This document shows, piece after piece, positions 14,620-40,248 of a stretch of 64,000 bases of DNA. This stretch comes from an uncultured Bacteroidales bacterium (lineage in GTDB: Bacteria > Bacteroidota > Bacteroidia > Bacteroidales > UBA7960), in assembly GCA_964624065.1 (NCBI GenBank), contig CAZUWF010000003.1, positions 89,471 to 153,470 on the forward strand. Reading direction: 5' to 3'. A program made the translations under genes and the position numbers. Every line of letters begins with the position of its first letter. Position 1 is the stretch's first letter. The notes under the pieces were generated by a model. The model did not search any database and was not told where the DNA came from. It worked only from the letters and a program-made list of their open reading frames with translations.

Positions 14620-14632
14620 AAAAATACCCCAA

Positions 14633-17873: not shown

Positions 17874-18470
17874 CTATATTGCCGCCGAAGTTTTACCGAA
17901 GACTCCAGAAAAAACCACATCAGAAAGGGCCTTGCGGCTTCTATCGCCTTTTTCGAGGTCGTAAAGGGGTTTCGGGAGTTTATCGGCAACGTCTTGGTAT
18001 CCCAGTGCAGAAACGCTCAACGGGTAGTAATTTTCTGGCAAGCTGAACACCTCAATGATTTTGCCCGGATCGAACCCACCCATTTGATGCATTACCAACC
18101 CATCGGTGTAGGCCTGAATTGTAAGGTATGCAACCGCCTGGCCCACGTCGTATTGCCACGAGAGGTTCGCATCCCCGCTCGCCTCACGCGCGGTGGCTCC
18201 AACTGCAACAACCAGAACAGGGGCGTTAACTGCCCACATTTGGTTGAATTCAACCAGTGAATCATAAATCTTTTGCCAAGTTTCATCGCCTTTTAATCCA
18301 ACGATGAACCTCCATGGTTGTTCGTTGTACGCACTTGGTGACCAACGGGCCGCCTCAAAAAAATGTTGGATCTTTTCTTTTTCAACTGACTTGTCCAAAA
18401 AAGACCTTGGGCTCCACCTGTTTTTAATTATTGTGTTTATTTTCAAGTTAGTTATTGCTTTCTTTTCCAT
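17874..18470 (-). CDS. Nitroreductase family protein
   Basis: RWSPRSF..EAARWSPSAYNEQPWRFIV is the signature N-terminal nitroreductase pattern. 198 aa. Confidence 0.85.
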   Translation of the reverse strand: MEKKAITNLKINTIIKNRWSPRSFLDKSVEKEKIQHFFEAARWSPSAYNEQPWRFIVGLKGDETWQKIYDSLVEFNQMWAVNAPVLVVAVGATAREASGDANLSWQYDVGQAVAYLTIQAYTDGLVMHQMGGFDPGKIIEVFSLPENYYPLSVSALGYQDVADKLPKPLYDLEKGDRSRKALSDVVFSGVFGKTSAAI

Positions 18471-18598: not shown

Positions 18599-18632
18599 CC
18601 AAAAAAAAGAAACCTGCTTGTTGGCAGGTTTC
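18599..18632 (-). terminator. Rho-independent terminator closing the sulfur/Hdr-like operon
   Basis: On the minus strand: GAAACCTGC-caacaa-GCAGGTTTC followed by T8. It lies 24 nt after the stop of the QmoC-like gene. Confidence 0.75.
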
Positions 18633-18655
18633 TGGCTGTATAACATATTAGCCAC

Positions 18656-19705
18656 CTATGTTGTAGTTTTCAATTTTTCGAAATACATTGCAAAGGACCT
18701 ATACAAGAAGTGCGTCCATTTGCCGAAAGGGACTATAATTAGAGCCCACTGAACAAGTACCGTCAAATGAAAAAGGTATAGCCAAATATTGGTTTCAATA
18801 AGGTTTAAATCAATCATGGTTCTGACCAAGAAAGCCGAGAAAGCCATCATAAGCAACCAAATAACGAAAAACCAATCTGATGGCTGCGAGAACTTGCTCT
18901 GCTCCTTGTTTTTCTTTATGCGGTCTTTGACAAAAACGGCGGTGAGGCCGAAAAGAGTAATGCTCATAACGTACCCCAAAAGAACAACAAAGGTATTTGT
19001 AGTTCTGAACCAATCTAGTGCTACCGTAGTAAGCAGTAGTCCAAGATAACCCAGCACTATAATCAAGTGCATGAGCCACCGCGAATAGCTATCGTTGCAC
19101 TTTAGGGTTCTTTTTTGGGTAAACATATGCTCGATCAAGTCTTTGAAACCCAGAATATAGTTCGACAACTTGATTTTTATGCCAGGTTTAAGTATGATAA
19201 AGTACCACATACGAGCTAGGTTGGGGATGAATATTAGAGTAAAAACACCAATTATCGCCCACATTTCAAATTTATGTCCTGCGCCTATAATTGCATCAGG
19301 GTCAAAGTTTTTTGACGAAGCAAAGAAAACAACCCCAATTGCAACCAGCAAGAAAGCCACGATTGTAAGGGGAAGTGATTTGTATAGGAGGCCAGAAAGC
19401 CCGGTCCAGTCGTATTTTGCAGTTAGCCAGCGGCGTATTGCCATCATCAATTCTCCCGGATTGGCCTCCCTGGGGCAATTGGATGCGCAATCGCCGCAGT
19501 AATAGCAGAGCCAGGGATCAAGCGATGATTTTAACTGATTTTCCAGACCCAAAACAGAGTATCTGACAAGAGAGCGAGGGTATGCGTGGTTTTTATCTGT
19601 AAGAGAACAAATGGCAGTGCAGTTACCGCAATTATAACAAGCATTGAAATCATTGGCGCCAAACTTTCTTAATTCTTCGCCAAAATATGGGTTAACTATT
19701 GACAT
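18656..19705 (-). CDS. QmoC/HdrE-like membrane subunit: N-terminal 2x[4Fe-4S] ferredoxin module fused to a ~6-TM (NarI/HdrE-like) domain
   Basis: CYNCGNCTAICS and CYYCGDCASNCPREA cluster motifs, followed by six hydrophobic helices carrying His residues (AGHKFEMW, RWLMHLII, LYLFHLTV, KWTHFLY). The start lies 4 nt after the upstream stop. Confidence 0.7.
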   Translation of the reverse strand: MSIVNPYFGEELRKFGANDFNACYNCGNCTAICSLTDKNHAYPRSLVRYSVLGLENQLKSSLDPWLCYYCGDCASNCPREANPGELMMAIRRWLTAKYDWTGLSGLLYKSLPLTIVAFLLVAIGVVFFASSKNFDPDAIIGAGHKFEMWAIIGVFTLIFIPNLARMWYFIILKPGIKIKLSNYILGFKDLIEHMFTQKRTLKCNDSYSRWLMHLIIVLGYLGLLLTTVALDWFRTTNTFVVLLGYVMSITLFGLTAVFVKDRIKKNKEQSKFSQPSDWFFVIWLLMMAFSAFLVRTMIDLNLIETNIWLYLFHLTVLVQWALIIVPFGKWTHFLYRSFAMYFEKLKTTT

Positions 19706-19709
19706 GGCT

Positions 19710-21908
19710 CTATTTTTTCATTTTGTAGGTGTAGTACTCTTCGTCTTCGTCCATTCCATCGGGCACAACAAGGCTGTACTTGTTCATCGTCATTAGGTGG
19801 TACATAACCGTTTGCTTGTCTATGCCAGTATTTTCTGCAATCTCTGATACCGTTTTGCTCGAACCATTGATTGCTCCTGAAATGGCTTTCCAAACCTGCG
19901 GGTATTCCTTCATGCTCAAGGCCTCTTCTATCAATCCATCTTCTGCAGATTTCTGGGTTTCTGATAATTCAACCATACCTGCAAAGCCGTCAATCATTCC
20001 TTCTATTTCCTTGTTGGTGTATTGAATGATTTCTATTGCATCTTCGGGGCAGACGGGGGCACAAATGCCGCACCCAGAACAGGTTGCCTTGTTTACCGTT
20101 GCAATTTCCTTGTCGTTTACAAGGGTTCTCTTCAACGAGTCGTAGTCGCACACCTCGGCACACTTGCCGCACCAGGCACATTTGTCTGAATTAATTCTTG
20201 CTATAACCGGAGGGATTGAAATGGTTCCGGTTTTAATCAAGGAACTTATCTTGGAAGCCGCCGCCAATGAAGATTGGACCGATTCGGTAATGTTGCGGGG
20301 CCCTTGGCACGAACCGCCAATAAACACACCTTTTATTACCGTTTCCACCGGTTTTAGTTTCGGGTGTATTTCGTTGAAGAACTTGTCGTTGCCAATTGGA
20401 ATCTTGAAAATTTCCGATATTTCTTGGCTGTCTTGCCGTGCAACCATCCCTGTTACCAAAACTACCAAGTCGGCTTCAAGCTCAATCTCCATTTTTGAGG
20501 TAAGGTAATCCTTTACTTTTATTGAAATGGAATTGCCTTTTGATACGAGTTTCGGAGGTTCTTTTTCTTCGAATTTTATGAAAATATCGCCTTGCGAAGA
20601 GGCCTTTTGGTATAGAAGTTCTTGTTTTCCGTAAGTTCTTACATCCCTGAAAAGGTGGAAGGATTTCAATCCCGGAAATTTTTCGATCGAAATTAAGGAC
20701 GAATGGATTGCAGCCGAGCAGCAATAACGCGAACAATGCTTGTTTTCGCCATTGGTTTGCCTGTTGCCAACACAATATATGTAAGCCACCCTTTTTATTT
20801 CCCTGTTTTTATATTTTAGCGAAACCTCGCTAACTTCGAGCAACCGCCGGTAGTGGGGAAGTGTGATCACATTGTCTAGTTCCTCATACCCGAATTCGCC
20901 TTTGGCAGGAAGGTAGCTGTCAAAACCGGTAGTTACCAAAACTGTACCTGCAATCAGGCTGAGATGTTCTACCCTTTGGTGAATGTTAATGCAATTGGAA
21001 TACTTGTCGAGGTATTCTTTTTCGTCCTTCAAAGCCTCGGCGTCAACCACGGGAATATCGGGCAGGGCCTCCGAATAGTTCTTGTAAATTGCCTTGCGGG
21101 TAGTTAATCCGAAATTGAAAGGGTCGGGTAGGTTTACCGGACAATCCTCAATGGCTTGGTTTATGTCGCAGCCATCCTTGTGCCAGGTAACGTACCTTGG
21201 CCTAATACTAATGTTGACGTTGAAAGAACCAAGGCTTCCGGTAACCTTTTCGATTTTTGCACCGGTAAAAAGGCTAATGTTCTTCTCGGCCTTCATTTCG
21301 TCGTAAAGGCGTTTTATTACTTCCTTCCCTTGTTGGTCACCCATAAAAAGCTTTCCAACCTGTGCAACCGGACCCCCAACAAAGTGGTCTTGCTCTATTA
21401 CGTAAACCTCGTTGCCAAGGCGAGCCAGCGATACGGCAGCACGCATTCCGGCAACACCAGCGCCTACTACAAGTACGGATTTCTTGGCAGGAACCTCAAT
21501 GTTTTCTAACGATTCCGAATGAGACACCCTGTTTATTCCGGCCCGGATGAGCCCCACTGCCTTTGTGCTGGCATCCATTGGCCTGTCGGAATGGGGCCAC
21601 GAACATTGCTCCCTAATATTTACCTGAACGTAGTTGGAGGGATTCAGACCCGCCCTTTCGGCCACGTTTCTAAATGTATGGAGGTGCAGCTTGGGAGAGC
21701 AAGAGGCCACCACTATTCCATCAAGTTTTTTTTCCTTAATGTCGTTTATCATTATGTTTTGGCTTGAATCGGCGCAAGCAAACATAATATCTGTTGATAC
21801 TTCAACTCCTTGATGATCTTTCAACAACCTTCCAATTTCCTCCACCCTAACGTAGTCGGATATGTTTCCCCCGCAATGGCAAATGTAAACTCCAATTTTT
21901 TCTTTCAT
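19710..21908 (-). CDS. HdrA-like (QmoB-like) flavo-iron-sulfur protein with C-terminal 2x[4Fe-4S] and a terminal winged-helix-like segment
   Basis: HdrA N-terminal domain IGVYICHCGGNISDYV..VVASCSPKLH..NIREQCSWPH, FAD fold VLVVGAGVAGMRAA, and CSRYCC. Ferredoxin motifs CAWCGKCAEVC and CSGCGICAPVCP. The C-terminal tail SKTVSEIAENTGIDKQTVMYHLMTMNKYSLV resembles an ArsR/MarR-type wHTH. Confidence 0.75.
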   Translation of the reverse strand: MKEKIGVYICHCGGNISDYVRVEEIGRLLKDHQGVEVSTDIMFACADSSQNIMINDIKEKKLDGIVVASCSPKLHLHTFRNVAERAGLNPSNYVQVNIREQCSWPHSDRPMDASTKAVGLIRAGINRVSHSESLENIEVPAKKSVLVVGAGVAGMRAAVSLARLGNEVYVIEQDHFVGGPVAQVGKLFMGDQQGKEVIKRLYDEMKAEKNISLFTGAKIEKVTGSLGSFNVNISIRPRYVTWHKDGCDINQAIEDCPVNLPDPFNFGLTTRKAIYKNYSEALPDIPVVDAEALKDEKEYLDKYSNCINIHQRVEHLSLIAGTVLVTTGFDSYLPAKGEFGYEELDNVITLPHYRRLLEVSEVSLKYKNREIKRVAYIYCVGNRQTNGENKHCSRYCCSAAIHSSLISIEKFPGLKSFHLFRDVRTYGKQELLYQKASSQGDIFIKFEEKEPPKLVSKGNSISIKVKDYLTSKMEIELEADLVVLVTGMVARQDSQEISEIFKIPIGNDKFFNEIHPKLKPVETVIKGVFIGGSCQGPRNITESVQSSLAAASKISSLIKTGTISIPPVIARINSDKCAWCGKCAEVCDYDSLKRTLVNDKEIATVNKATCSGCGICAPVCPEDAIEIIQYTNKEIEGMIDGFAGMVELSETQKSAEDGLIEEALSMKEYPQVWKAISGAINGSSKTVSEIAENTGIDKQTVMYHLMTMNKYSLVVPDGMDEDEEYYTYKMKK

Positions 21909-21930
21909 GATAATTCTTATGTTCGTTGGA

Positions 21931-24696
21931 TTATACGGGTATTTCTCTTTCTACCAGCTTCATGTAGCTCGCTGCTTCGGTGGCGGCGCATCCTGCCGAG
22001 AGGATCGAATCGGGAATGTCTCGTGGACCGGCAACCGTTCCAGCCATGAAAACACCTTCAATGGAAGTGCGGGAAGGGCTGACAAGTTCATCAACCTGTT
22101 TCACGTAATTTAGTTCGTCCAGCTCAAGGGTTTGCTTTTTGAAACTGCTTGCAATCTCATTGTTTGGTAATGCACCAATTGACAAAACTACAAGGTCATG
22201 TTTTGCTTCCTTTAGCTTGCCAGTAGTTACATCTTCGTACCTCAAAACAAGGTCGCCACTACCGTCTTCCTTTTCATTGATTTGTGCAATCTTACCCTTG
22301 ATCATATTAACTCCCATCCGTTTTGATTGCTGCATGAATTCTTCGTAACCCTTGCCGAATGCGCGAAGGTCTATGTAGTAAATGGTAATGTCGGCAAGGG
22401 GTAGGGCACCCATCAAAAGCTGCGCCTGCTTTATGGAATACATGCAGCAAACCTGTGAGCAAATTGGATTATTGGTGCATTCGCTGCTACAAGGTCTGCT
22501 GTTTTCGATTGACACATCGCGCGAGCCGGTGCAAAGCACGTAGGCTACGTTGCTTGGAACCTTTCCATCGCCAGGTCTCAAAACGTTGTTGAATGGTCTT
22601 GTTGGGGCAATTAGCCTTTCCATTTGAAGGGCGTCAATCACGTTGGGATAAGTGCCAAATCCATACTCTTTTTTTCCCGACGGTGGAAATAACCTAAAGC
22701 CTGAGGCCAAGATTACCGACCTGACGTCAACGTCGTGGATTTCGGTTTTTTGGGAGAAGTCAATGGCTTCGGCCGGGCAAGCGGCGATGCATTGGTGACA
22801 TTCGCGACAGTTGCTGCAATCGAGGCACCTGCTTGTGCTATCGAGAACCTCGACCTCGGTAAAGGTGCTTTCAACTTCATCAAAATCTTTTATGCGCACG
22901 GCAGGGTCGCGGTGCGCCTGTTTTGTTTGTGGCTTGAATTGAATGTTGGGACGGCTCAAAACCTTTGCGGTATCAACCGCAGGCAGCTTGTCCCCAGCTT
23001 CGTAATCTTCGATGTTTAGGCCTGCCAGGAACTTATCGATGTAAAATGCCGCCTTCTTTCCCAGTCCGGCTGCTTCGATGATTGTTGAGGCTCCAGTAAC
23101 AGAGTCGCCGCCTGCAAAAACATAGGCGAGTGATGTTTGAAGGGTTTTTTCGTTTACTACAATGGTGCCGTTTTTGTTGAGGTTTAGCTCGCTTTCGAAA
23201 ACATCGGTTGAGGGGTTAAGTCCCACCGCCTCGATAACCCAATCTACTTTCTCTGTGTATTCGGAACCTTTAACTTGAACCGGTCTCCTCCTACCACTTT
23301 CATCGGGTTGGCCAAGTTCCATCTTAGCCAGGGTTACCCCTTCAAGTTGCCCGTTTTTGCCCAAGAATCTTATTGGATTTCGCAGGAGCAATAGCTTTAC
23401 ACCCTCTTCTTCCGCCTCTTTTATTTCGGGGGCAAAGCAAGGCATTTCTTCACGGCTACGGCGGTAAACCACCGTAACTTCGGCCGCACCGAGACGCACC
23501 GAGGTCCTGGCGGCATCAATTGCTGTGTTTCCACCACCGATAACCATAACTCGCTTGCCCTTTAGCGCGTTGGTTTTCTCTTGTATGGAGTCACGCAAAA
23601 AGTCGAGGCACGAGACCACCCCGTTCAATTCCTGCCCTTCTATGTTTAGCTTTGTGGTTTTGTGGGTTCCCACAGCAACGAATACCGCATCGAACCCATC
23701 TTTTTTCAACTTTTCTATACTTTCTACCTTGTGGTTTACCACAGTTTGGACTCCAAGGGATGTTACGTTTTTTACATCCCTTTCAACAATGTTTTTCGGA
23801 AGCCTGAACTCGGGCAGGCTCAAACTCAACATTCCTCCCAGAATGGGAGCCGCCTCAAAAATTTTAACCTGATGACCTTTTAAGGCCAAGTGGTAGGAGG
23901 CTGTCAATCCTGATGGCCCTGAGCCGATTACTGCAATTTTCTTACCTGTTGGTTCTTTCTTTTTAACTGCTGGTGGTTCGGGATACTTTTGGTAAAAATG
24001 GTCTGCGAAGAAACGTTTGGTTTTGCGTATGTCAACCGTGCCCTCGAGCAGGCTACGGGTGCATGACGACTGGCAAGGCGCGTAGCAAGCCCTCCCGAGG
24101 CTGCCCGGAATAGGAATGTCTTCCATGTGCAGCTTCATGGCCTCATCGTACTGGCCGTTTCGAACCAACGAAACATAACCGTAAGCCTTTGTACCCCCGG
24201 GGCATCCGCCAATGCAAGGTGCGGAGGTGTCTTGCCTGTCTATGTTGGCAATTCGCGGGTTTGCAAGGTTGAATGGTATGTAAGCCACCTTGCGAGCCGA
24301 AAGGTTCAGGTTGTAATCATCGGGTCTTACCTCTGGGCATACTATTTCGCAACTTTCGCACCCCGTGCAATTTTCGGCAATCACGTACCTTGGCTTCTTA
24401 ATTGCTCTTACCTTGAAGCCCGATTCGGTTTTTTCCACCTCTTCAACAGTGCTGTTAAGCATTGTGGTAATATTTGGATGCCTGGCTGTTTCCGACATTT
24501 TCGGGGTGGTAATGCAGGCTCCGCAGTCGAGGGTTGGAAAAACCTTGCTCAATTGAATCATTTTTCCACCAATCGACAACTGCTTTTCTACCAGAAGCAC
24601 TTTGTAATCCATTTGGGCAAGGTTGAGAGCCGCCTCTTGTCCGGCCACACCGCCGCCAATCACCAGGGCGTCAAATTTTGTCTTTTTTGTCAGCAT
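21931..24696 (-). CDS. HdrA-like flavoprotein with an embedded GltD/NfnB/SudA-like NAD(P)H-binding oxidoreductase module
   Basis: HdrA part: ALVIGGGVAGQEAA..KVFPTLDCGACI..CTGCESCEIVCP ... CSQVCCMYSIK..IDLRAFGKGYEEF..GVFMAGTVAGPRDI. Inserted part: KKIAVIGSGPSGLTASYHLA..GGML..LPEFRLPK, KRVMVIGGGNTAIDAART..YRRSREEMP and VFAGGDSVTGASTII, typical of glutamate synthase small-subunit-like proteins. Confidence 0.8.
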   Translation of the reverse strand: MLTKKTKFDALVIGGGVAGQEAALNLAQMDYKVLLVEKQLSIGGKMIQLSKVFPTLDCGACITTPKMSETARHPNITTMLNSTVEEVEKTESGFKVRAIKKPRYVIAENCTGCESCEIVCPEVRPDDYNLNLSARKVAYIPFNLANPRIANIDRQDTSAPCIGGCPGGTKAYGYVSLVRNGQYDEAMKLHMEDIPIPGSLGRACYAPCQSSCTRSLLEGTVDIRKTKRFFADHFYQKYPEPPAVKKKEPTGKKIAVIGSGPSGLTASYHLALKGHQVKIFEAAPILGGMLSLSLPEFRLPKNIVERDVKNVTSLGVQTVVNHKVESIEKLKKDGFDAVFVAVGTHKTTKLNIEGQELNGVVSCLDFLRDSIQEKTNALKGKRVMVIGGGNTAIDAARTSVRLGAAEVTVVYRRSREEMPCFAPEIKEAEEEGVKLLLLRNPIRFLGKNGQLEGVTLAKMELGQPDESGRRRPVQVKGSEYTEKVDWVIEAVGLNPSTDVFESELNLNKNGTIVVNEKTLQTSLAYVFAGGDSVTGASTIIEAAGLGKKAAFYIDKFLAGLNIEDYEAGDKLPAVDTAKVLSRPNIQFKPQTKQAHRDPAVRIKDFDEVESTFTEVEVLDSTSRCLDCSNCRECHQCIAACPAEAIDFSQKTEIHDVDVRSVILASGFRLFPPSGKKEYGFGTYPNVIDALQMERLIAPTRPFNNVLRPGDGKVPSNVAYVLCTGSRDVSIENSRPCSSECTNNPICSQVCCMYSIKQAQLLMGALPLADITIYYIDLRAFGKGYEEFMQQSKRMGVNMIKGKIAQINEKEDGSGDLVLRYEDVTTGKLKEAKHDLVVLSIGALPNNEIASSFKKQTLELDELNYVKQVDELVSPSRTSIEGVFMAGTVAGPRDIPDSILSAGCAATEAASYMKLVEREIPV

Positions 24697-24713
24697 TCTG
24701 TGTTCCTGTTAGA

Positions 24714-25157
24714 TTAGTTATCAATTGCCTTAATCCCGCCTGCCATTTCTGTTTCAATATCGCCCAGCTCGAGCAATATTTCGCTGAAGGCCTCCATATG
24801 TCCGGCAAACGGAACCGCGCAAACAGAGCAAATGGCTGCCATTCTGATCCGCTTCGGACTAATGTTGTTCTGTTTCATTATAGCCTGAGATCGGGTAATG
24901 ATATCGTTTGTGAAATCAGGACATTTATGGCTGTATGAGCATTCATGACCATCGGCGGCAATGAAAACACCATCGAATTTTTGCTTGAAAGCGTGCATGA
25001 TCCACCTTGTTTTTATACCTGAGGAGCAGGGCAGGTTGATCACGTAAACTGACGGTGAATAGTGTACCTTGCGCAAACCTGCCAGGTCTATTCCGGGATC
25101 AGAAATCTTATCGGTCGAAAAAACCAATATTCTGGGTTTATAACTTTTGTCGGCCAT
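24714..25157 (-). CDS. MvhD/FlpD-like iron-sulfur subunit (methyl-viologen-reducing hydrogenase delta-subunit family)
   Basis: 147 aa. ILVFSTDKISDPGIDLAG..VINLPCSSGI..FDGVFIAADGHECSY and the overall Cys pattern fit the FlpD/MvhD family. It lies immediately upstream of an HdrA-like gene. Confidence 0.75.
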   Translation of the reverse strand: MADKSYKPRILVFSTDKISDPGIDLAGLRKVHYSPSVYVINLPCSSGIKTRWIMHAFKQKFDGVFIAADGHECSYSHKCPDFTNDIITRSQAIMKQNNISPKRIRMAAICSVCAVPFAGHMEAFSEILLELGDIETEMAGGIKAIDN

Positions 25158-25220
25158 AATGCTTGTTTATGAAATGAACTATTGTCGATAATCAGAATGG
25201 AAGCCAGAAACTGCTTGCAA

Positions 25221-25472
25221 TTAAGCTTTTCTAAGGTACAGCCGCGAAAAACTGTCCTCGTCAACAAAGCCAAGAAACTCGTGATCCATCTTTTGGCACC
25301 ATTTGGGTATGTCTCTTTTTGTCCCGGCATCGGCCGAGAGTACCTCCATCACCTCGCCCGATTCAATGTCGCCAATTCCTTGTTTTGCTGCCAGTAGTGG
25401 TCCTGGGCAGGCTGTTCCTCTTGCGTCGATTTGTTTTGCTACTGTTAGTGCTTTTAATTCTTGGGATGTCAT
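25221..25472 (-). CDS. TusA/SirA-family sulfurtransferase (cytoplasmic sulfur carrier)
   Basis: 83 aa. IDARGTACPGPLLAAKQ carries the CPxP active-site Cys motif. GEVMEVLSADAGTKRDIPKWC is family-typical. Confidence 0.85.
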   Translation of the reverse strand: MTSQELKALTVAKQIDARGTACPGPLLAAKQGIGDIESGEVMEVLSADAGTKRDIPKWCQKMDHEFLGFVDEDSFSRLYLRKA

Positions 25473-25504
25473 TTTTTGTTTTTTTAGTTTGAAAACTTGT
25501 TTTT

Positions 25505-25918
25505 TTAGACCAAAAAGTGGACGTCGGCTTCTTTTACCGCATCAATATATTCGCCAATTCCGATGATATCGTCAACCATATCAATGAAATCTTCGATCTT
25601 TGAGCCTCCCCAAATTCGGCCGGCAAGGCTGCAAACGTAAATTTTTACGTTTGTCATCTCCCTGGCCATTTCGAAGTACTCCTTCCAGGTAGGGCTGTTT
25701 AGTTCCTTGAGCTTGTCAATGCAGGCTTGAAGGTTTTCGTTGTCTTCGCTAAGGTACTCCCTGCCGTTTTCGTTACCTTTTACAAACCATTGAGCCGCTT
25801 TTAGGTGAACGTAAACTTCCACATCCATATCTTCGGCTGCGGCCCCGCTTAGCAAAACACCAGCGAAGGTTAGCTTGTCAAGCCCACCCGAAAACAATCC
25901 TATACACATTTTTGCCAT
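25505..25918 (-). CDS. DsrE/DsrF/DsrH-like family protein
   Basis: 137 aa. MCIGLFSGGLDKLTFAGVLLSGAAA and the conserved-Cys segment VKIYVCSLAGRIWG fit the DsrE-like family. Confidence 0.65.
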   Translation of the reverse strand: MAKMCIGLFSGGLDKLTFAGVLLSGAAAEDMDVEVYVHLKAAQWFVKGNENGREYLSEDNENLQACIDKLKELNSPTWKEYFEMAREMTNVKIYVCSLAGRIWGGSKIEDFIDMVDDIIGIGEYIDAVKEADVHFLV

Positions 25919-25943
25919 TTTACTGAAATTTAATTGTTGTCAT

Positions 25944-26444
25944 TTAATCTCCACATCCACCTGATGCCTTTTGTGTGGGTGCGCTAGCTTGTTGAGAACC
26001 TGACCCTACTTCAACCTTTTCGGGAAAAGAAAGCTGCCAGTTTTCAAATCCTCCTTCAAGCACCCTTACATCGCCATATTTCATTAGCCTTAGGTTTTTT
26101 GCCGAAAGGGCCGATCGTTGATGGGTGTTGCTGTATAGCACCACGGTTTGTCTCCTGTTCGAAAGAAGTTTCGAGAACTCCAGGGTTCCCCTTGGAATGT
26201 TTATTGCTCCAGGAATATGCCCTGCTTCAAACTCCTCGGGTTCTCGCACATCTATTACTGATAATGGTGCCGTGCCCAATTCCATCAATTGGTTCACCTC
26301 TTCGGCCACAACAAAATCAACGTCTTTCAATGCGGCTTCGAGCATAGTATTTGTGTTGCTGTAAACGGTTTTGTCTGGATTGAAGCATCCGGACAACACA
26401 AATGTCAAGATAACCGCCGACAGGATTAAATTTAGATTTTTCAT
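25944..26444 (-). CDS. Rhodanese-like lipoprotein lacking the canonical active-site Cys but ending in a ...ASGGCGD tail
   Basis: Lipobox VLSGC. Rhodanese fold (VIDVREPEEFEAGHIPGAINIPRG). The active-loop position reads VVLYSNTHQRS, with Ser where Cys is expected. A low-complexity linker precedes the C-terminal SGGCGD-stop (nt 25947-25964). Confidence 0.75.
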   Translation of the reverse strand: MKNLNLILSAVILTFVLSGCFNPDKTVYSNTNTMLEAALKDVDFVVAEEVNQLMELGTAPLSVIDVREPEEFEAGHIPGAINIPRGTLEFSKLLSNRRQTVVLYSNTHQRSALSAKNLRLMKYGDVRVLEGGFENWQLSFPEKVEVGSGSQQASAPTQKASGGCGD

Positions 26445-26464
26445 CTTGTCAAGATTTTGAAGAC

Positions 26465-27283
26465 CTATTTTGTTTTATACTCGTTCCAGCCCCCGTCGTA
26501 TATCTTAATGTTACGATAGCCAAGACCCTTCAAAGCAAGGTAAACAGTGCCCGTTCGCGCACTAGAAGTACAATAAAGAATTATCTCCTTATCTTTGACG
26601 ATCTTGCTGTCTGCCAAAACTTTTTCGATTTCAGCTTTGGTTTTCAGCTGAGATTTTGCTTCGTTAATGAAGCTTTTGTTTTCCACATTAATTGAACCAG
26701 GGATGTTGCCAGCCTTGTGTTCGTTAGGTGCCGAAACATCGATAATTATGGTGCCGGGATTATTTAGCTTCCCATTTACATAAGCGTATTCGACAAATAT
26801 TGACGGCTTCAACTTTGGAGTTAAGGTTATGGGCGTGGGGGTTACGGGGTTCCGCCCTACCGCCCCACGGGCTTCCCTCCAAGCCGTCATATGACCATCA
26901 AGAATCTTGACCTTATTGTACCCGAGATAGTCGAGCACCCAATACAGGTAGGTTGAGTAAACATACCTTCCATTGTCGTAGATAATTATGGTTTTTGCAG
27001 GATCCACTCCCTTCGTGCCAAGGACTTTTGCAAGCTCGGCAGGGCTATTGAGCAAACCTTCAATTGTTCCGGGCTTGCATAGGGCTTTGTATTCGATGTT
27101 AACCGCATTTTGAATGTGCACTTTTGCAAAGTCTTGCGCGCTTACGGTGGCAACAAAAACAGTGTTGGCATCGCCAACCAGCTTAACTGCATCACGGGCA
27201 GAAATTATGTCAAACTGAGCATTTGCCGAGGCAAGGGCCAACACCAAGATTATTGTGTTTCCAAATTTTCTTAAATTGTCCAT
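26465..27283 (-). CDS. Exported tandem-rhodanese sulfurtransferase (thiosulfate sulfurtransferase-like)
   Basis: Signal peptide ..ALASANAQ and two rhodanese domains. Catalytic loop ILYCTSSARTG in the second domain. GHIQNAVNI/GNIPGSINV motifs. Confidence 0.8.
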   Translation of the reverse strand: MDNLRKFGNTIILVLALASANAQFDIISARDAVKLVGDANTVFVATVSAQDFAKVHIQNAVNIEYKALCKPGTIEGLLNSPAELAKVLGTKGVDPAKTIIIYDNGRYVYSTYLYWVLDYLGYNKVKILDGHMTAWREARGAVGRNPVTPTPITLTPKLKPSIFVEYAYVNGKLNNPGTIIIDVSAPNEHKAGNIPGSINVENKSFINEAKSQLKTKAEIEKVLADSKIVKDKEIILYCTSSARTGTVYLALKGLGYRNIKIYDGGWNEYKTK

Positions 27284-27295
27284 TTCAAAAATCGA

Positions 27296-28315
27296 TTAAA
27301 ATTTTGCTTGCAATTGAACCACAAAACGGTCATTATTTATCTCAGTGGGTTTTTCTGCCTTGTACAGGTAGTTGACTTGCAATCTCGTCCAATCGTTGAA
27401 GAAGTAGTTTAGGCCGAAAGTCATAGTGCTTTCCTTGTAGTTTTGGTCGTTACCCGAGTCGAAGAAATCAAATTTAAAAACCGGTTCAACGTTCCATTTT
27501 GTTTTGTATGAAACTGCCGCCCATCCACCATTTCTTTCTTCTCCAAGTACAATGAGCTCGCCCCCGCATCCACCGCCTAGGTCCCTGTTGTAGTCGCCCT
27601 TGTCGTAAATGTACTCGCCCATCAACGAAAACCCTTGGTATTGAGCCTTAAGTTCGGCACCAATTGTTGTGCGGGTGTCGGTATTGTTGTTGTACGAAGG
27701 GTACGAGCCGCGAAAGCTACCTCCAACTTGGACAAAGTCAAGTGGCCTGAACAACACTCTTGCCACCAAATCCTTTTTTTGGTTGTTGTCAAAGCGCTTC
27801 AAGCCACTTCCGTTCATTATGCCCAATTGATACTGCAGTTTAGTGGAGTTGTCACCCCCCATAAAAACCAAACCGAAATCGCGAAACGGCGCCACGGTTT
27901 GCAACACTGCGGTAGAGCGGAAAATTGTTGGCATATCGTTACAGGCAAGGTTGGTCTCAAATCCGAAAGGAGTTTTGAAGGTACCCACCGAAACCCTGGC
28001 CCATTTAAACCTGTTGTAAGAAATGAAGGCATCCAGCAGGTAGGGGTTGTTGTTAGCGTCCAAGAATGGGCTTAGCTCAACAACGGCATAAAAGGAAAAG
28101 TCGTAGGGGATTGCTCCCTGAACGCCAAGCCTAACCCTTTCGAAAGAAAAGGAAGTTGTAGTTTTCGGGTCTTTTACCACCGCATCAAATTGAGATTGTA
28201 TGAACCCAAACACCGTAACGCCTTCTTCCGAGGGTGCGTCTCCGCACCCTTGTGCCGAAATTCTCGGTACTGCAAAGGCCGAAAGCAAGAGTATAACCAG
28301 CAGTGTTTTTTTCAT
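27296..28315 (-). CDS. Outer-membrane beta-barrel porin (porin O/P-like)
   Basis: The ATG at 28315 gives MKKTLLVILLLSAFAVPRISAQ. Alternating amphipathic beta-strand pattern throughout, with a C-terminal ..VVQLQAKF (terminal Phe). Confidence 0.7.
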   Translation of the reverse strand: MKKTLLVILLLSAFAVPRISAQGCGDAPSEEGVTVFGFIQSQFDAVVKDPKTTTSFSFERVRLGVQGAIPYDFSFYAVVELSPFLDANNNPYLLDAFISYNRFKWARVSVGTFKTPFGFETNLACNDMPTIFRSTAVLQTVAPFRDFGLVFMGGDNSTKLQYQLGIMNGSGLKRFDNNQKKDLVARVLFRPLDFVQVGGSFRGSYPSYNNNTDTRTTIGAELKAQYQGFSLMGEYIYDKGDYNRDLGGGCGGELIVLGEERNGGWAAVSYKTKWNVEPVFKFDFFDSGNDQNYKESTMTFGLNYFFNDWTRLQVNYLYKAEKPTEINNDRFVVQLQAKF

Positions 28316-28345
28316 TTTTCGAAGGGAATTTAAAATGTTATGCTG

Positions 28346-28353
28346 CAAATTTA
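28346..28353 (-). promoter_or_regulatory. Bacteroidota-type -7 promoter element (TAAATTTG) upstream of the porin gene
   Basis: The minus strand reads TAAATTTG (TAnnTTTG consensus) about 30 nt upstream of the porin ATG. No clear TTTG -33 element is present. A C8/T6 tract lies just upstream. Confidence 0.3.
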
Positions 28354-28393
28354 TTGGTTAAAAAAGGGGGGGGCGTTAATATGGCCCATTGAT

Positions 28394-29359
28394 TTAATTG
28401 GTTACGAAGGGTAGGTTTCTTGGCACTTCTGTACCGTGACCCCAACGATTTTCGGTCCAAGTTGAACTGGAGTGGTTAAGCTTGTTCATGCCAAACACCA
28501 TACTGTGGGCATTGTATCCAATTACCCTCAAAAAGGCAGAAACCGCTCCTGATGTTTGACCTGTATAGCAGTAAGTTACAACTGATTTTGCTGGGTTATT
28601 AAACTTAACCGTGTTATCGCCAACAAGCATTGGGCGTATTCTGAAAGATCCGGCAATGTGTCCGAAACCCAAAAAATGATTTTCGGGGAAGTAGTTGTTA
28701 ATAAAGTAGTTTGAAGGGTTGGCAAGCACCGCTTCTGGAGTTACGCTTTTGAATCCTTCGGCCAATACTGCTGCAACTCTGTTATTTAGAATTGTGGCCG
28801 GATCAGTGGAGTTGGAGGTAAATGTTGGGCTTGGATAGGTTAAATTTGTTGGTGCGGCGGCGGTAGACCAGTTGGCATGACCAGCTGAAATATTGCCAGT
28901 TAGGCTGTTCCATCCTCTGGGGTGGTTTGCAAATGTTGTATGCCAGGAGCTCATTCCCCACTTTAACGCTTGGGCTGTTAAATATCCTCTAAGTCTTAGT
29001 AGGCCTACCAAATAAGTTGCCTGGTTGCCAGAATAACAAACGACCAAAATTGGTTTGTCAGCAATGGCTGCCTCTGCCAGAACGTTGTTCCAGGCCACGT
29101 TTTTGGCGCCCTGAATTCTTCCTTGTGCAAAATCGGCGGGATCCCGAACGTCAATAATGTACCTTCCACTTAAATTGCCATCAGCGGGAGGCATTATTAC
29201 AAAGCCGCTAATAATTGTGTTGATGTCGAGGTTTTGAGCAACCAAATAGTCTGTTAATGCTTTTTGCGCATCAAATGTAGGGCCCTCGTCTTTACATCCG
29301 GTGAAAACAAAAGTTGCCACCAGGATGATTGTTAAAAAACTTGCTTTTAATTTTTTCAT
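28394..29359 (-). CDS. Double rhodanese-like lipoprotein, probably surface exposed
   Basis: The ATG at 29359 gives MKKLKASFLTIILVATFVFTGC-KDEG (lipobox followed by K-D-E). Two rhodanese-like domains have Cys loops VVCYSGNQA and TYCYTGQTS. Confidence 0.75.
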   Translation of the reverse strand: MKKLKASFLTIILVATFVFTGCKDEGPTFDAQKALTDYLVAQNLDINTIISGFVIMPPADGNLSGRYIIDVRDPADFAQGRIQGAKNVAWNNVLAEAAIADKPILVVCYSGNQATYLVGLLRLRGYLTAQALKWGMSSWHTTFANHPRGWNSLTGNISAGHANWSTAAAPTNLTYPSPTFTSNSTDPATILNNRVAAVLAEGFKSVTPEAVLANPSNYFINNYFPENHFLGFGHIAGSFRIRPMLVGDNTVKFNNPAKSVVTYCYTGQTSGAVSAFLRVIGYNAHSMVFGMNKLNHSSSTWTENRWGHGTEVPRNLPFVTN

Positions 29360-29448
29360 TTTAGTAGGTTTTAGGTTGGGTTCGTAAATTTTTTTGTGTT
29401 GGCTTGGAAATTCGCAGAACCCTTTAATCAAATCTCCTCGCTGTTTTT

Positions 29449-29937
29449 TTAGTCTCCGCAGCCTCCGCTTGTTTTGGCGGCAGGTTCATTTTTTTCTATC
29501 TCGGGATCCCAACTAATTATTCCACCTTCAAGGTTTTTGACGTTGGTGTAGCCTAGTTGTTTGAGGGTTAGGGCTGCAAGAATTCCCCTAAAGCCCTTTT
29601 GGCAATAAATGATTATTTCGTTACCTCTTTCGGGTTCGTAGAAAAATTCACCCTCCCAGTAGATGCTGTCGTTTATTTTGAATTCTAGCAACCCCCTTGG
29701 GATGTTAAACGCTCCGGGGATGGACACTTGCTCGAATTCCTTTACTTGCCTCACATCTATAAGGTAAAAGTCTTCTCCAGTGTCAATCTTTTCCCGCAGG
29801 TCAACAACGGTAATTTGCTCCACGAGCGATTTGTGTGCGTTAGCAATTTCTTCACCGTTTTCGAAAATGGCCGTGCAGGAGCCTGCAATTAGCGCCACCA
29901 AGGCAAGGCCGATTAGTATTTTTGTGGTATTCTTCAT
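29449..29937 (-). CDS. Rhodanese lipoprotein with a catalytic Cys and a ...TSGGCGD C-terminal tail
   Basis: Lipobox IAGSC. LIDVRQVKEFEQVSIPGAFNIPRG. Catalytic loop IIYCQKGFRG. A linker precedes the C-terminal SGGCGD-stop (nt 29452-29469). Confidence 0.8.
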   Translation of the reverse strand: MKNTTKILIGLALVALIAGSCTAIFENGEEIANAHKSLVEQITVVDLREKIDTGEDFYLIDVRQVKEFEQVSIPGAFNIPRGLLEFKINDSIYWEGEFFYEPERGNEIIIYCQKGFRGILAALTLKQLGYTNVKNLEGGIISWDPEIEKNEPAAKTSGGCGD

Positions 29938-29950
29938 CTGGAGTCTTGTT

Positions 29951-31165
29951 TTAGTAAGCAGTGAACCTTCCGGTTTTCTCGTTCCACTTTACAAACCAGT
30001 ACCATATCAACAAAATGCAAACAACCACCCCAAAAGCACCGGAGTAGCCTATGTAATCTGGCAAGAACATTTTGAAGCCAGCCTGATGGGGGATTATTTT
30101 ATTGACTAGCGGCACTATTGCCTTGTTTGATAAAGGCATTATTAGAATAAATGCCAATGCCGAGAACCAAAGCTTAACCTGACCCTCGCCAACGCGCCAA
30201 AGGGTTCCAGCAGCGCAACCCCCTGCTACGGTCATTCCTAGCCCGAATATGAAACCTCCTATCAAGGCCTTCGCCCAGAAATGGGAGAAAACCCAAGTCA
30301 TTTCCTGAGTTCTAATTCCGGCATCTCCAATGCCAATTCCGAAGTACTTGATGGCAGTGAAGCCAAAAAGGGTAACCACCATACCGGCAATTATCCCTGT
30401 AGCTCCCGATGCCTCGCCGGTCATGAACGGATCGCGGAAGGCTTTGACGATACAAAAGCGTGATCTCTGGCTAATCAATCCCATTAACAGCCCGATAATT
30501 ATGTACCAAGACATAATTGGATTATTGGGAGCGTATGTGTAAGATAAAATTAAAATAAGTGCAAACACTACCCATCCTATATAAACCTGAGTTTTGCCCT
30601 TGGCGGGTTTTGCAGCGAGCCACGTGTAGCTTTTGCCCGAACTAAGCATCGGGAAGCGCTCCATTTCCCACATAAGGTACTTTAGAGCAACTATAACTCC
30701 AACAAAAAGTCCAACGGTAAAAATTATAGCCCCTCCCGAAAGTGCAGGAACTCCGCTAAAAAACGATGCTACGGTGCAACCCAAACCTACGGTTGCACCG
30801 ATGGCCATCAACCCACCGCCGATAAAACCCTTTGCCATTTCACCCTTTGGAGGCACCCTCAGGGCAAATTCTTTTGAGAAAAGTGCTCCGATAAATGAGC
30901 CTACGATAAGCATTAAGGCTAGCATGGCAAAGATGCTGGAGCCCATTGGTGTGGTGCCTTCAAAGGCCGAAAAGCCAAGAAGCCCGTAAAGGTTCTCACC
31001 CCAGTTGTTTATCCCTCCACTGGCACCCCAGGGGCTGTTAATGGCAAAAAGCACAATATTAAGCGCCCCAAGAATTACGGCTCCAACCCAAACAGGCCAG
31101 TGTTTTGCAAAGAAAGTGGCCCAAAGGTGACCGAAAATCCCCGTTTCCTTAGGTTTTTCTGACAT
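29951..31165 (-). CDS. YeeE/YedE family inner-membrane sulfur (thiosulfate) transporter
   Basis: 404 aa and polytopic. Two half-repeats carry conserved Cys-containing Gly-rich segments (GATVGLGCTVASFFSG and TVAGGCAAGTLWRVGEG). It is adjacent to a TusA-like gene, as in known YeeE-YeeD/TsuA-TsuB pairs. Confidence 0.85.
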   Translation of the reverse strand: MSEKPKETGIFGHLWATFFAKHWPVWVGAVILGALNIVLFAINSPWGASGGINNWGENLYGLLGFSAFEGTTPMGSSIFAMLALMLIVGSFIGALFSKEFALRVPPKGEMAKGFIGGGLMAIGATVGLGCTVASFFSGVPALSGGAIIFTVGLFVGVIVALKYLMWEMERFPMLSSGKSYTWLAAKPAKGKTQVYIGWVVFALILILSYTYAPNNPIMSWYIIIGLLMGLISQRSRFCIVKAFRDPFMTGEASGATGIIAGMVVTLFGFTAIKYFGIGIGDAGIRTQEMTWVFSHFWAKALIGGFIFGLGMTVAGGCAAGTLWRVGEGQVKLWFSALAFILIMPLSNKAIVPLVNKIIPHQAGFKMFLPDYIGYSGAFGVVVCILLIWYWFVKWNEKTGRFTAY

Positions 31166-31174
31166 AGTTGCCTC

Positions 31175-31411
31175 CTAGTTCTTTTTTATAAGGTACCTGA
31201 ACACTCCGCCTTCCAATGTTTCTCTCAACAAAAGGTCGTTTCCGTATTTTTCGCACCATTTGGGCAGGTCAGAATTGGTGCCGGGGTCGGTTCCAAGCAT
31301 CTCAAGCACCTCGCCCGAAGACAAACCCTTCATGGTTTTTGCTAGCTTTAGCATTGGCATGGGGCAGCTTAGACCTTTACAGTCAAGCGTTTGGTTGATT
31401 TGAATTTCCAT
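31175..31411 (-). CDS. TusA/YeeD-like sulfurtransferase, first gene of the operon
   Basis: The ATG at 31411 gives MEIQINQTLDCKGLSCPMPMLKLAK (CPxP motif) and GEVLEMLGTDPGTNSDLPKWC. 78 aa. It ends 9 nt upstream of yeeE. Confidence 0.85.
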   Translation of the reverse strand: MEIQINQTLDCKGLSCPMPMLKLAKTMKGLSSGEVLEMLGTDPGTNSDLPKWCEKYGNDLLLRETLEGGVFRYLIKKN

Positions 31412-31532
31412 CTTTTGGGTATTTTGTGTTGTTAAAAAATTCACAACATGAAATTCCTGCAACTTTTTTAATTGGGCAATTTTTTTTCATTGTTTTGCAA
31501 CCATATGGCAGGCTGATTTGTTATAACAAAAA

Positions 31533-31550
31533 AATTGACGACGGTCAATT
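31533..31550. promoter_or_regulatory. Perfect 7-bp inverted repeat AATTGAC-gacg-GTCAATT (FNR/FixK-like TTGA-N6-TCAA box)
   Basis: Read directly from the 216-nt divergent intergenic region between the operon (tusA ATG 31411) and the Crp/Fnr gene (ATG 31679). Confidence 0.55.
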
Positions 31551-37978: not shown

Positions 37979-38244
37979 AAAAAAACTTTTATGGTTGTCG
38001 GATAGGCCTAAATCAAAACTATGGGTGCAAATTACTATTGGAGGCAACCAAGCACAGGTTAGAATCAACAAAAATGAAAAAGAAAAAACCGGTTTCAAAA
38101 TAAGCAAAAAATATTTTGCCGTGCAATCAGGCTTTTTAAACTACGTGCAAGTTGTGTCAGGACAATAAATTTGGATCAATTGATCATCGAAACATTGTGT
38201 GACAATGTAGAAAACCTCGGGGGTGTGCAGCAAAGTTAGAAATA

Positions 38245-39012: not shown

Positions 39013-39158
39013 TTGGCATTAATCTTGGTTGCAAATCTAAATTTTTTTATCCGAATTGGGCCACAGTGATTTAATTGTATTTAACTCGAATCAGGTCCAT
39101 CAAACAAATTTCATCGGTTTTAGTTTATTCGTTAATTTCACGCCTCAAATCGGGTTTT

Positions 39159-40166: not shown

Positions 40167-40248
40167 TTTGAAAAAACCGGTGCAACCCCCAAATATTCTA
40201 ACTTTGCCGTCACAAACCATTATTTTATCACCCAAAAATCCTTGCCCG

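Follow-up and report, generated by a model that had tools for sequence, protein, structure and literature searches.

The DNA analysed here is a 64-kb stretch of contig CAZUWF010000003.1 from an uncultured Bacteroidales bacterium, hereafter the window. From position 31411 down to 18656 it carries 13 consecutive genes on the minus strand, whose products were identified from the listing of open reading frames (ORFs) and from Pfam and NCBIfam annotation. Start codons were revised for TusA1 (31411), the double rhodanese (29359) and the porin (28315), and with these starts the intergenic gaps within the operon are 4-89 nt. In this study, we found that two cassettes, each widespread independently, are fused in this operon. 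One is a capture cassette of rhodaneses and a porin, and the other is a redox core that resembles Hdr and Qmo complexes. The genes and the signals at the operon boundaries are as follows.

31175-31411, minus strand: TusA1 (PF01206, 1.1e-22), active site CPMP, with the cysteine kept in orthologues
29951-31165, minus strand: YeeE/YedE-family inner-membrane sulfur importer (PF04143, Sulf_transp, 9.5e-46)
29449-29937, minus strand: RhdL1, small rhodanese lipoprotein (Rhodanese, 4.6e-18) with catalytic cysteine and a C-terminal SGGCGD tail
28394-29359, minus strand: Rhd2x, double-rhodanese lipoprotein, two rhodanese domains with a cysteine in both
27296-28315, minus strand: OprO/P-type porin (Porin_O_P)
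26465-27283, minus strand: RhdT, periplasmic tandem rhodanese (Rhodanese, 2e-33) with a type I signal peptide
25944-26444, minus strand: RhdL2, rhodanese-fold lipoprotein (Rhodanese, 1e-21) with a C-terminal GGCGD tail
25505-25918, minus strand: DsrE-family sulfur carrier (DrsE_2 and DsrE), conserved cysteine in Y-V-C-S-L-A-G
25221-25472, minus strand: TusA2 (PF01206, 1.5e-20), active site CPGP
24714-25157, minus strand: MvhD/FlpD-type iron-sulfur connector (PF02662, 2.1e-24)
21931-24696, minus strand: HdrL, 921 aa, an HdrA core with an internal GltD/NfnB module (Pfam, NCBIfam and PDB matches)
19710-21908, minus strand: HdrA, 732 aa, full-length with a C-terminal winged helix (5ODC, 1.1e-116)
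18656-19705, minus strand: QmoC-like membrane subunit, 2x[4Fe-4S] plus six transmembrane segments (Pfam, NCBIfam, conserved ligands)
18608-18633, minus strand: intrinsic terminator with a 10-bp stem, AGAAACCTGC-CAACAA-GCAGGTTTCT, followed by T8
31535-31548, no strand: FNR-box-like palindrome TTGAC-N4-GTCAA, about 130 nt 5' of the first operon gene
31679-32374, plus strand: divergent Fnr/Crp-family regulator (cNMP_binding and HTH_Crp_2) with an N-terminal C-x6-C-x-C motif

The hairpin at 18633-18608 is the sole strong terminator. The remaining candidates are intragenic, and their number (n=20) compares with 18.4 expected from shuffles. A nitroreductase-family gene (17874-18470, minus strand) lies on the same strand just 3' of the terminator and is probably unrelated to the operon, because the strong terminator and a 185-nt gap intervene. 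No second exact copy of the TTGAC-N4-GTCAA palindrome was found within the window.

A search of gene neighbourhoods across genomes, which had been suggested in the original prediction for this DNA, recovered the same 13-gene order in six other contigs (L004, L030, L087, L096, L148 and L005, the last truncated by its contig end) and the redox core in about 85 genomes. HdrL identity to the window protein was 59-82% across the syntenic contigs (80% in L004, 59% in L030), and porin identity was about 47-67%. The genes flanking the operon vary among the six contigs. Since the same order is kept amid differing flanks, chance juxtaposition of the genes is excluded.

We then asked which sulfur enzymes the window encodes. 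When proteins of related loci were used as seeds in six-frame phmmer searches, the 64 kb gave no CCG/HdrB, Otr, PsrABC, SQR or DsrC protein, and Pfam annotation of the remaining ORFs showed no classic sulfur enzyme. Apr-type and Sat genes were also missing from the Pfam annotation of window ORFs of at least 120 aa, for which no targeted six-frame search was made, and no glycine-cleavage-H/LbpA-type domain was present among the Pfam-annotated window ORFs. The original prediction, made from the sequence letters, had listed the 13 genes with these domains, gaps of 4-89 nt, a divergent Crp/Fnr gene, an upstream palindrome and a hairpin with T8. Annotation and sequence searches confirm all of these, the gaps with the three revised starts. 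The layered architecture that it drew, with outer-membrane and periplasmic capture, an importer, a cytoplasmic relay and a Qmo/HdrA-like module, also holds, as does the lack of a classic terminal sulfur enzyme in the window.

The redox core was compared residue by residue with its relatives. Cys22 of TusA2 was invariant in 82 of 82 sequences, and five cysteines of MvhD were invariant in 84 of 84. Residues 1-150 and 625-917 of HdrL match HdrA, and residues 155-560 match NfnB/GltD. The inserted segment covers almost the whole of an NfnB module and matches NfnB-type chains in the PDB at 1e-78 to 1e-112. Its GxGxxG and GxGxxA motifs, which bind flavin adenine dinucleotide (FAD) and NAD(P)H, are invariant, and this bears out the NAD(P)H link that had been proposed. 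The second flavoprotein, HdrA, aligns over residues 3-638 to HdrA of M. wolfeii (5ODC, 1.1e-116). For a comparison of cluster ligands, 72 HdrA and 84 HdrL sequences were aligned to methanogen HdrA, with the following outcome.

N-terminal cluster of methanogen HdrA: kept in HdrA, lost in HdrL
C386/C399/C403/C404 site: kept in HdrA, kept in HdrL
C-terminal ferredoxin domain: kept in HdrA, lost in HdrL
C194/C197: lost in HdrA, kept in HdrL
Inserted ferredoxin clusters, eight cysteines: lost in HdrA, kept in HdrL, where the NfnB module is spliced into that domain

The complementary loss of cluster ligands implies that HdrL and HdrA would form a heterodimer, one asymmetric HdrA 'dimer' equivalent to the methanogen HdrA dimer. 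Both an HdrA-type and an NfnB-type FAD module with cluster ligands are predicted in the complex, and these are the parts relevant to electron bifurcation. In L086 (matched to Labilibaculum euxinus), L087, L096 and L148, HdrL is a 432-aa version without the NfnB module, and NADPH input is therefore optional.

HdrA residues ~641-732 form the winged helix. In other phyla, as well as in L086 and L087, an ORF of its own (about 88 aa) encodes this domain. Pfam, Foldseek and an AlphaFold2 (AF2) model with a mean predicted local distance difference test score (pLDDT) of 66 gave only generic winged helix-turn-helix matches, none of them at E <=0.001. A DsrD- or DsrC-like role for the domain was considered and rejected, as no such family matched and the domain is without cysteine.

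The QmoC-like subunit has six predicted hydrophobic segments. Of 54 aligned sequences, 53-54 retain the eight cysteines, H213, H313, H332, M166 and C203, and the conserved histidines are candidate haem ligands. The NCBIfam qmoC model (NF038018) matches the protein over its full length with 147.1 bits, against a cut-off of 300.

The distribution of the core was determined by a scan of one genome per species, which gave at least 596 candidate stretches, the best 80 of which were all full-length matches. Gene maps were then drawn with seed-based phmmer for 86 non-redundant loci. The core was verified in about 85 genomes from more than 10 phyla, among them Bacteroidota, Spirochaetota, Gemmatimonadota, Acidobacteriota, Actinomycetota, Chloroflexota, Bacillota (including the cultured Desulfofundulus thermobenzoicus), Desulfobacterota, Kiritimatiellota and Ignavibacteriota. 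The core is common in Bacteroidales (Tenuifilum, Paludibacter, Labilibaculum, Ancylomarina and Lentimicrobium), an order with many HdrL homologues of about 70% identity. The order of the core is DsrE-TusA-MvhD-HdrL-HdrA-winged helix-QmoC. TusA and MvhD genes were each present in 75 of the 75 core loci having upstream sequence, and a DsrE-family gene in 61 of 66. A QmoC-like gene was found in 53 of 73 loci, and in 18 of the 73 its place is taken by HdrC (~105 aa) and an HdrB-type CCG protein, whose identities were confirmed by Pfam. HdrC and HdrB (CCG) are the classic disulfide-reducing pair, and this pair takes the place of the membrane subunit in a quarter of the lineages.

Two core loci carry additional genes. 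In Tenuifilum osseticum (L001, 17124-22151), a separate cluster lies 1.3 kb 3' of the core, across a gene on the opposite strand. It encodes an Fe-S protein, a CCG protein, a 337-aa pyridine-nucleotide-disulfide oxidoreductase, a ferredoxin and a 612-aa Fe-S/CCG protein, and it could be a separate HdrB-type partner. In a Paludibacter species (L003, 8237-8806), a gene for an S-adenosylmethionine-dependent methyltransferase lies between the two DsrE-family genes of the core.

The regulators of the core differ among lineages. Bacteroidales loci that hold the core only have a divergent Crp-type gene and TGTGA-N6-TCACA boxes. ArsR-type regulators were found in 23 of 66 loci, in most of the non-Bacteroidales phyla. 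One cysteine is present in 29 of 32 of these ArsR-type sequences and a second in many, and we take this two-cysteine pattern to be the one typical of SqrR/BigR persulfide sensors. CsoR/CstR-type regulators are encoded in two Bacillota core loci.

The linkage of the core to sulfur carriers bears on whether a sulfur substrate is involved. The C-terminal ferredoxin domain of HdrA, the NfnB module and the quinone subunit would together suffice to couple NADPH, ferredoxin and menaquinone, and no sulfur substrate would be required. MvhD-HdrL-HdrA-QmoC could then be a bifurcating or confurcating NADPH/ferredoxin:menaquinone complex of fermentation, with TusA and DsrE as modulators or passengers. However, over a range of more than 10 phyla the core adjoins TusA in 75/75 loci and has a DsrE-family gene beside it in 61/66. 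The regulators resemble sulfur sensors, and what the core was specifically placed behind in Bacteroidales is a cassette for the capture and import of sulfur. We consider such a redox hub without a sulfur substrate improbable.

The same gene linkage separates the module from canonical QmoABC, in which QmoA is a short HdrA-like flavoprotein and QmoB an HdrA-like protein with a C-terminal MvhD-like domain. Like QmoABC, the module has two HdrA-derived flavoproteins and an HdrC/HdrE-type membrane protein that fuses an HdrC-like 2x[4Fe-4S] part to a six-helix haem-b-type domain, and both would link the quinone pool to cytoplasmic sulfur chemistry. Some orthologues are annotated as QmoC by the Joint Genome Institute. 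From this shared subunit logic, the complex could be a canonical QmoABC working for AprAB-Sat encoded elsewhere in the genome. In the window, however, MvhD has a gene of its own, an NfnB-type NADPH module is built into the first flavoprotein (HdrL), and the second flavoprotein is an HdrA of full length that retains the cluster domains at both termini and bears the winged helix. The protein misses the cut-off of the qmoC equivalog (147 vs 300 bits), the core is linked to TusA (75/75) and DsrE (61/66) genes, and Pfam annotation of the window, to which no targeted search was added, holds no aprBA or other Apr-type product. The cultured carriers are fermentative Bacteroidales and not sulfate reducers. 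This explanation has very little in its favour and ranks last among those that we considered. Judged by its domain architecture, by the pattern of its Fe-S ligands and by the NCBIfam cut-off, the module is not canonical QmoABC, sHdr or methanogenic Hdr.

The module probably corresponds to 'type II Qmo', which has been described as closer to HdrA, as occurring in organisms without Dsr/Apr or with them, and whose function was left unassigned (Neukirchen et al. 2023, PMC10504309). A fusion of HdrA and a glutamate-synthase-type module was named HdrL in Desulfobacterium autotrophicum, which has HdrL1-3 (Strittmatter 2009, PMC2702500). The window protein belongs to this group, as it combines HdrA domains and an NAD(P)H-binding GltD/NfnB module in one polypeptide, with mvhD directly upstream. 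In Syntrophobacter fumaroxidans, HdrABC/HdrL/MvhD (Sfum_0819-0824) is made only with sulfate present (PMC5947623). The HdrL-mvhD clusters of sulfate reducers resemble the window module, and its HdrC+HdrB-bearing relatives, in that HdrL lies beside mvhD and a second HdrA and NAD(P)H is the presumed donor. They differ in that they are discussed around DsrC and sulfite reduction, and no TusA/DsrE linkage was found for them in PMC2702500 and PMC5947623. The window also has a QmoC-like subunit in place of HdrBC, and its host, judged by relatives, is not a sulfate reducer.

In the sHdr-LbpA systems, as in the module, hdr-like genes are directly linked with tusA and with genes of the dsrE family. In the window, DsrE and TusA immediately precede mvhD-hdrL-hdrA, and ArsR-type regulators are common in related loci. 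In contrast to the window, sHdr-LbpA loci encode a short sHdrA, two HdrB, two HdrC and a lipoate-binding protein, which the system requires, and sHdr is without MvhD, HdrL and QmoC and oxidises sulfur (PMC11094781). The methanogen MvhAGD-HdrABC complex (5ODC) is alike in the full-length HdrA alignment, in the MvhD partner and in its dimer logic, which the putative HdrL/HdrA heterodimer would follow. It differs in that the window has neither a hydrogenase nor the catalytic subunit HdrB, its Fe-S ligand sets are split over two polypeptides, and NADPH and quinone modules are added. The YTD cluster of sulfur disproportionators also has a YedE-TusA-DsrE trio, a likeness in gene content only. No description of the TusA-MvhD-HdrL-HdrA-QmoC/HdrBC-DsrE module was found in the literature.

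The capture cassette consists of a small rhodanese, a double rhodanese, the porin and a tandem rhodanese. The carrier cysteines of TusA, DsrE, YeeE and the active rhodaneses are conserved across orthologues. In both RhdL1 and RhdL2 a C-terminal GGCG(D/G) tail is invariant in orthologues, and small-rhodanese homologues from Otr-type loci terminate in ...GGC. The active-site position of RhdL2 is Ser or Gly in all orthologues. Because its catalytic cysteine is lost in all of them, the tail cysteine is the only candidate active residue of this protein. SoxY also bears a cysteine on a glycine-rich C-terminal arm (GGCGG), but the window tails sit on rhodanese folds and the likeness is one of sequence motif only. 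In every orthologue of Rhd2x the lipobox cysteine is followed by K-(D/E)-(D/E), which we take to be the surface-export signal of Bacteroidota lipoproteins, and Rhd2x is probably surface-exposed. The N-terminal domain of RhdT is inactive (Asp) and its C-terminal domain has an active-type CTSSAR motif, which is conserved.

The porin has 759 homologues, and the best 120 of them, down to 48% identity, all keep three of its cysteines (C35, C136 and C261). In the AF2 model (pLDDT 82.5, 16 strands) they lie in the disordered mature N-terminus (QGC), in a long L3-like loop and in a long, glycine-rich loop between strands 11 and 12 (GGGC). Foldseek matched the model to Omp32, OmpT and OprP, which are anion-selective and general porins. 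Neither a three-cysteine porin nor GGCG-tailed rhodaneses were found described in the literature.

The importer was aligned to YeeE of S. thermophila (6LEO), and counterparts of C22, C91 and C293 are all there. As in YeeE/YeeD (TsuA/TsuB; 6LEO, 8J4C), a Sulf_transp protein with three cysteines lies beside a CPxP TusA-like protein. The differences are that identity is low, the halves align crosswise, the TsuA cut-offs are missed (89.8 and 71.7 bits vs 400 and 645), and the pair sits inside a 13-gene operon. The best NCBIfam match of the importer is YedE/FdhT, with 140.9 bits against a cut-off of 350.

These family matches bear on the possibility that the cassette captures and reduces selenite or tellurite, or traffics selenide, and not sulfur. 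YedE/FdhT (5.8e-41) ranks ahead of TsuA (2e-25) for the importer, and the porin and the tandem rhodanese match ExtI (7e-13) and ExtH (2.9e-13) of the Geobacter selenite/tellurite operon. However, the scores are far under the curated cut-offs (141 vs 350, 48 vs 150 and 50 vs 200 bits), and we placed the selenium reading low because every NCBIfam score falls short in this way. In addition, the reductases that partner the cassette elsewhere are of the tetrathionate and thiosulfate/polysulfide types, the Pfam-annotated window ORFs include no selD or Sec-related gene (no targeted search was made), and a trace element would not account for so wide a distribution. A role in selenium or tellurium metabolism is thus very unlikely.

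The partners of the capture cassette were surveyed in a metagenome scan, mapped with seed-based phmmer, that yielded 82 loci with the cysteine porin. In the 41 informative loci, the cassette had the following neighbours.

Octahaem cytochrome and cytochrome b: 21/41 loci
Octahaem cytochrome and Psr/Phs-type enzyme together: 1/41 loci
PsrABC/PhsABC-type molybdoenzyme: 16/41 loci
Hdr/Qmo-like core: 2/41 loci
None seen: 1/41 loci

Octahaem tetrathionate reductase (Otr) was thus present in 22/41 informative loci and a Psr/Phs-type enzyme in 17/41, one locus being in both counts. The octahaem cytochrome scores 577 bits with TIGR04315 (cut-off 375) and matches 1SP3 at 4e-128, by which it is assigned as a bona fide member of the tetrathionate-reductase family. 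The molybdoenzyme is closest to PhsA, and its loci additionally encode a split YeeE and a type III SQR as well as a DsrC-like protein and DsrE2. Examples are L142 (1440-16093), L129, L169 and about 13 similar marine metagenome loci, which have a PhsA/PsrABC-like enzyme, a split YeeE, the cysteine porin, a Crp gene, two small and two double rhodaneses and, downstream, a type III SQR (647 bits, over the cut-off), a DsrC-like protein and DsrE2. In L088 (6159-11872), L089 and 20 further metagenome loci (L090-L138), the capture cassette is accompanied by an Fnr-like regulator, an Otr-family cytochrome and a PhsC-like cytochrome b. The cultured Carboxylicivirga sediminis has a capture locus of this Otr type. 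From their gene content, the Otr-type capture loci look like an uncharacterised operon for periplasmic respiration of sulfur compounds.

The window regulator scores 200-340 bits against the regulators of Otr- and Psr-type operons and 110-130 bits against those of core-only loci. A relaxed dyad search found FNR- and CRP-type boxes at the matching promoter position, those of most related capture-cassette loci being TTGAT-N4-ATCAA, and the exact palindrome TTGACNNNNGTCAA had no match in 87 related loci. Because the regulator subfamily and the position of the box are common to capture operons, we interpret the window palindrome as an FNR-type box that arrived with the capture cassette. In the window operon, the TusA/YeeE importer and an extra carrier lipoprotein are the junction that joins the two cassettes.

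Capture cassettes beside a periplasmic reductase recall Wolinella Sud-PsrABC, Shewanella Otr (1SP3) and Geobacter ExtH/ExtI, where rhodanese carriers and a dedicated porin accompany a quinone-linked reductase. In the window, by contrast, import and a cytoplasmic Hdr/Qmo-like complex substitute for the periplasmic reductase. How such sulfur compounds cross the outer membrane has been stated to be unknown (PMC13490349). A 2026 proteomics paper describes the import of thiosulfate through the outer membrane as unresolved, and in a Desulfobacterota species it places a tetrathionate-reductase homologue beside an OprO/P-like porin.

These surveys change several points of the original prediction. It had treated the operon as a single hard-wired unit and as exotic for Bacteroidota; the operon consists of two separable cassettes, and the core is common in Bacteroidales and occurs in other phyla, more than 10 in all. 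Its suggestion of novelty stands in that the literature holds no characterised system of such composition, and has to be qualified in that HdrL and 'type II Qmo' were already named. The features that it described were accurate, and it had passed over the GGCG(D/G) tails, the porin cysteines, the export signal of Rhd2x, the complementary Fe-S losses and the winged helix. It had called the substrate, the direction and the catalytic site unexplained. Substrate identity, the direction of electron flow, the site of S-S cleavage and any electron bifurcation are still matters that we infer, and they are narrowed by the exchange of QmoC for HdrBC and by the reductase contexts of the capture cassette.

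We propose that the Hdr/Qmo-like complex itself is the 'missing' terminal enzyme, which would reduce sulfane sulfur bound to TusA and DsrE with NADPH and menaquinone. We give this proposal a probability of about one half. Under anoxia, thiosulfate, polysulfide or sulfane sulfur derived from tetrathionate would be caught at the cell surface and would traverse the porin. The C-terminal cysteines of the small rhodaneses would then carry the sulfur to import by YeeE, after which it would be loaded on TusA/DsrE as a persulfide or thiosulfonate. This carrier-bound sulfur would be the 'heterodisulfide' of the complex, and HdrL/HdrA would reduce it and release sulfide. Electrons would come from NADPH via the NfnB insert, from the menaquinone pool via QmoC, or from both. 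We favour a reductive role with an Hdr/Qmo-like terminal enzyme because QmoC is exchanged for HdrC and HdrB and because the capture cassette otherwise serves quinone-linked sulfur reductases. The complex is placed at the terminal step because the core is tied to TusA and DsrE and is often, outside Bacteroidales, under regulators of the persulfide-sensor type.

Several points weigh against the proposal. The window version has no CCG/HdrB protein and hence no known site for S-S cleavage. Menaquinol by itself does not have the reducing power to act on persulfide or thiosulfate. The proposal therefore requires co-input of NADPH or ferredoxin, or bifurcation, and the NADPH module is missing from L086, L087, L096 and L148. 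Bifurcation of electrons from NADPH to menaquinone and a low-potential sulfur acceptor would settle the energetics, and this is speculation. Psr-type enzymes run in either direction, and Psr-type loci also encode SQR. The operon makes no provision for sulfite if thiosulfate is the substrate, and the function assigned to every member is read from sequence and genome context. In addition, sHdr, the best-studied pairing of TusA/DsrE with an Hdr-like complex, is oxidative (PMC11094781).

The last of these points leads to the first in rank of the alternatives, which is followed by a non-respiratory role, the redox hub, selenium/tellurium and canonical Qmo. The complex may work in the reverse direction and oxidise sulfide or thiols to carrier-bound sulfane sulfur in the manner of SQR. 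Electrons would pass to menaquinone and on to fumarate reductase, and YeeE, the carriers and the porin would export the sulfur. By the established redox potentials, electron transfer from sulfide to menaquinone is downhill and that from menaquinol to persulfide is uphill. The carriers of the system inhabit sulfidic habitats, and the sole published comment that we found on these Bacteroidales genes, made in passing, proposes sulfide detoxification (PMC11129491). The oxidative precedent of sHdr, the persulfide-sensor-type regulators of other phyla, which normally govern sulfide-oxidation regulons, and the type III SQR in the Psr-type cassette loci fit the same direction. However, the capture cassette lies mostly beside reductases (Otr, Psr/Phs) and under Fnr-type control, YeeE has been characterised as an importer, and a surface rhodanese with a porin fits uptake better. 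The HdrB-containing variants resemble disulfide reductases, and an oxidising complex would have no obvious use for the NADPH input module. On balance we regard the reverse direction as unlikely.

A non-respiratory role is a further, still less probable explanation. The operon would scavenge thiosulfate or polysulfide for assimilation, or control reactive sulfur, and the complex would be a housekeeping persulfide reductase. E. coli-type YeeE/YeeD brings in thiosulfate for cysteine synthesis, and an NADH-dependent coenzyme A-persulfide reductase controlled by CstR provides a precedent for such a reductase. The structure of the YeeE/YeeD thiosulfate-uptake complex has been solved (8J4C), and in most genomes the core occurs without the capture cassette, under persulfide-sensor-like regulators. 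In contrast, 13 genes, among them a membrane module for quinone and an HdrA pair of the bifurcation type, make a heavy outfit for assimilation, and both the Fnr-type control and the exchange with respiratory reductases point to a dissimilatory role.

A more specific form of the reductive proposal can be stated, which we offer tentatively and think unlikely to be right in all its parts. MvhD-HdrL-HdrA-QmoC would be a molybdenum-free, flavin-based bifurcating NADPH:menaquinone/carrier-persulfide (or thiosulfonate) oxidoreductase, in which the downhill reduction of menaquinone pays for S-S cleavage at low potential on TusA/DsrE. A cysteine relay of the porin and the GGCG rhodaneses would, in addition, pass sulfane sulfur through the outer membrane in the form of covalent cysteine adducts.

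The other genes of the window, as annotated with Pfam, are housekeeping genes and genes of type IX secretion. Components of the secretion system (PorP/SprF, GldH and a PorZ-like protein) are encoded at 1737-2678, 11849-12322 and 14489-17002, and cargo proteins with CHU_C or Por_Secre_tail sorting domains at 12-1712, 39075-40166, 52435-55035 and 55129-57462. These secretion genes assign the organism to Bacteroidota, and the nearest homologues of its proteins are in Bacteroidales. In the ~2 kb between PorP/SprF and polA (2679-4657), no ORF exceeds 107 aa. Searches of this interval for Rfam families, tRNAs, repeats and Pfam domains (short minus-strand fragments) were all empty, and the interval may hold the remains of a gene or else non-coding DNA that is not annotated. 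ORFs at 36632-38107 (minus strand, 491 aa) and 40168-42306 (plus strand, 712 aa) had no Pfam match at E <=0.01.

The system is widespread and, in the combination of its parts, uncharacterised, and it is kin to Hdr/Qmo-type complexes and to sulfur relay systems. The module is a concrete candidate for the handling of thiosulfate, polysulfide or sulfane sulfur in anaerobes without Dsr, Apr, Sox or sHdr, and the cysteine porin with its rhodanese cassette is a concrete candidate for the passage of such compounds across the outer membrane. Cultured carriers include Labilibaculum, Ancylomarina and Tenuifilum, together with Carboxylicivirga for the Otr variant and Desulfofundulus for the HdrBC variant. 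With these results, 'type II Qmo' and HdrL, neither of which has so far had a function, gain a possible role. If the reductive proposal is true, an Hdr-type reductase could operate without HdrB, or NADPH/quinone bifurcation could take place. If the bifurcating form of it is true, the complex would represent a new kind of thiosulfate/polysulfide reductase, cytoplasmic and distributed over more than 10 phyla, and would account for 'type II Qmo' in organisms without Apr/Dsr.

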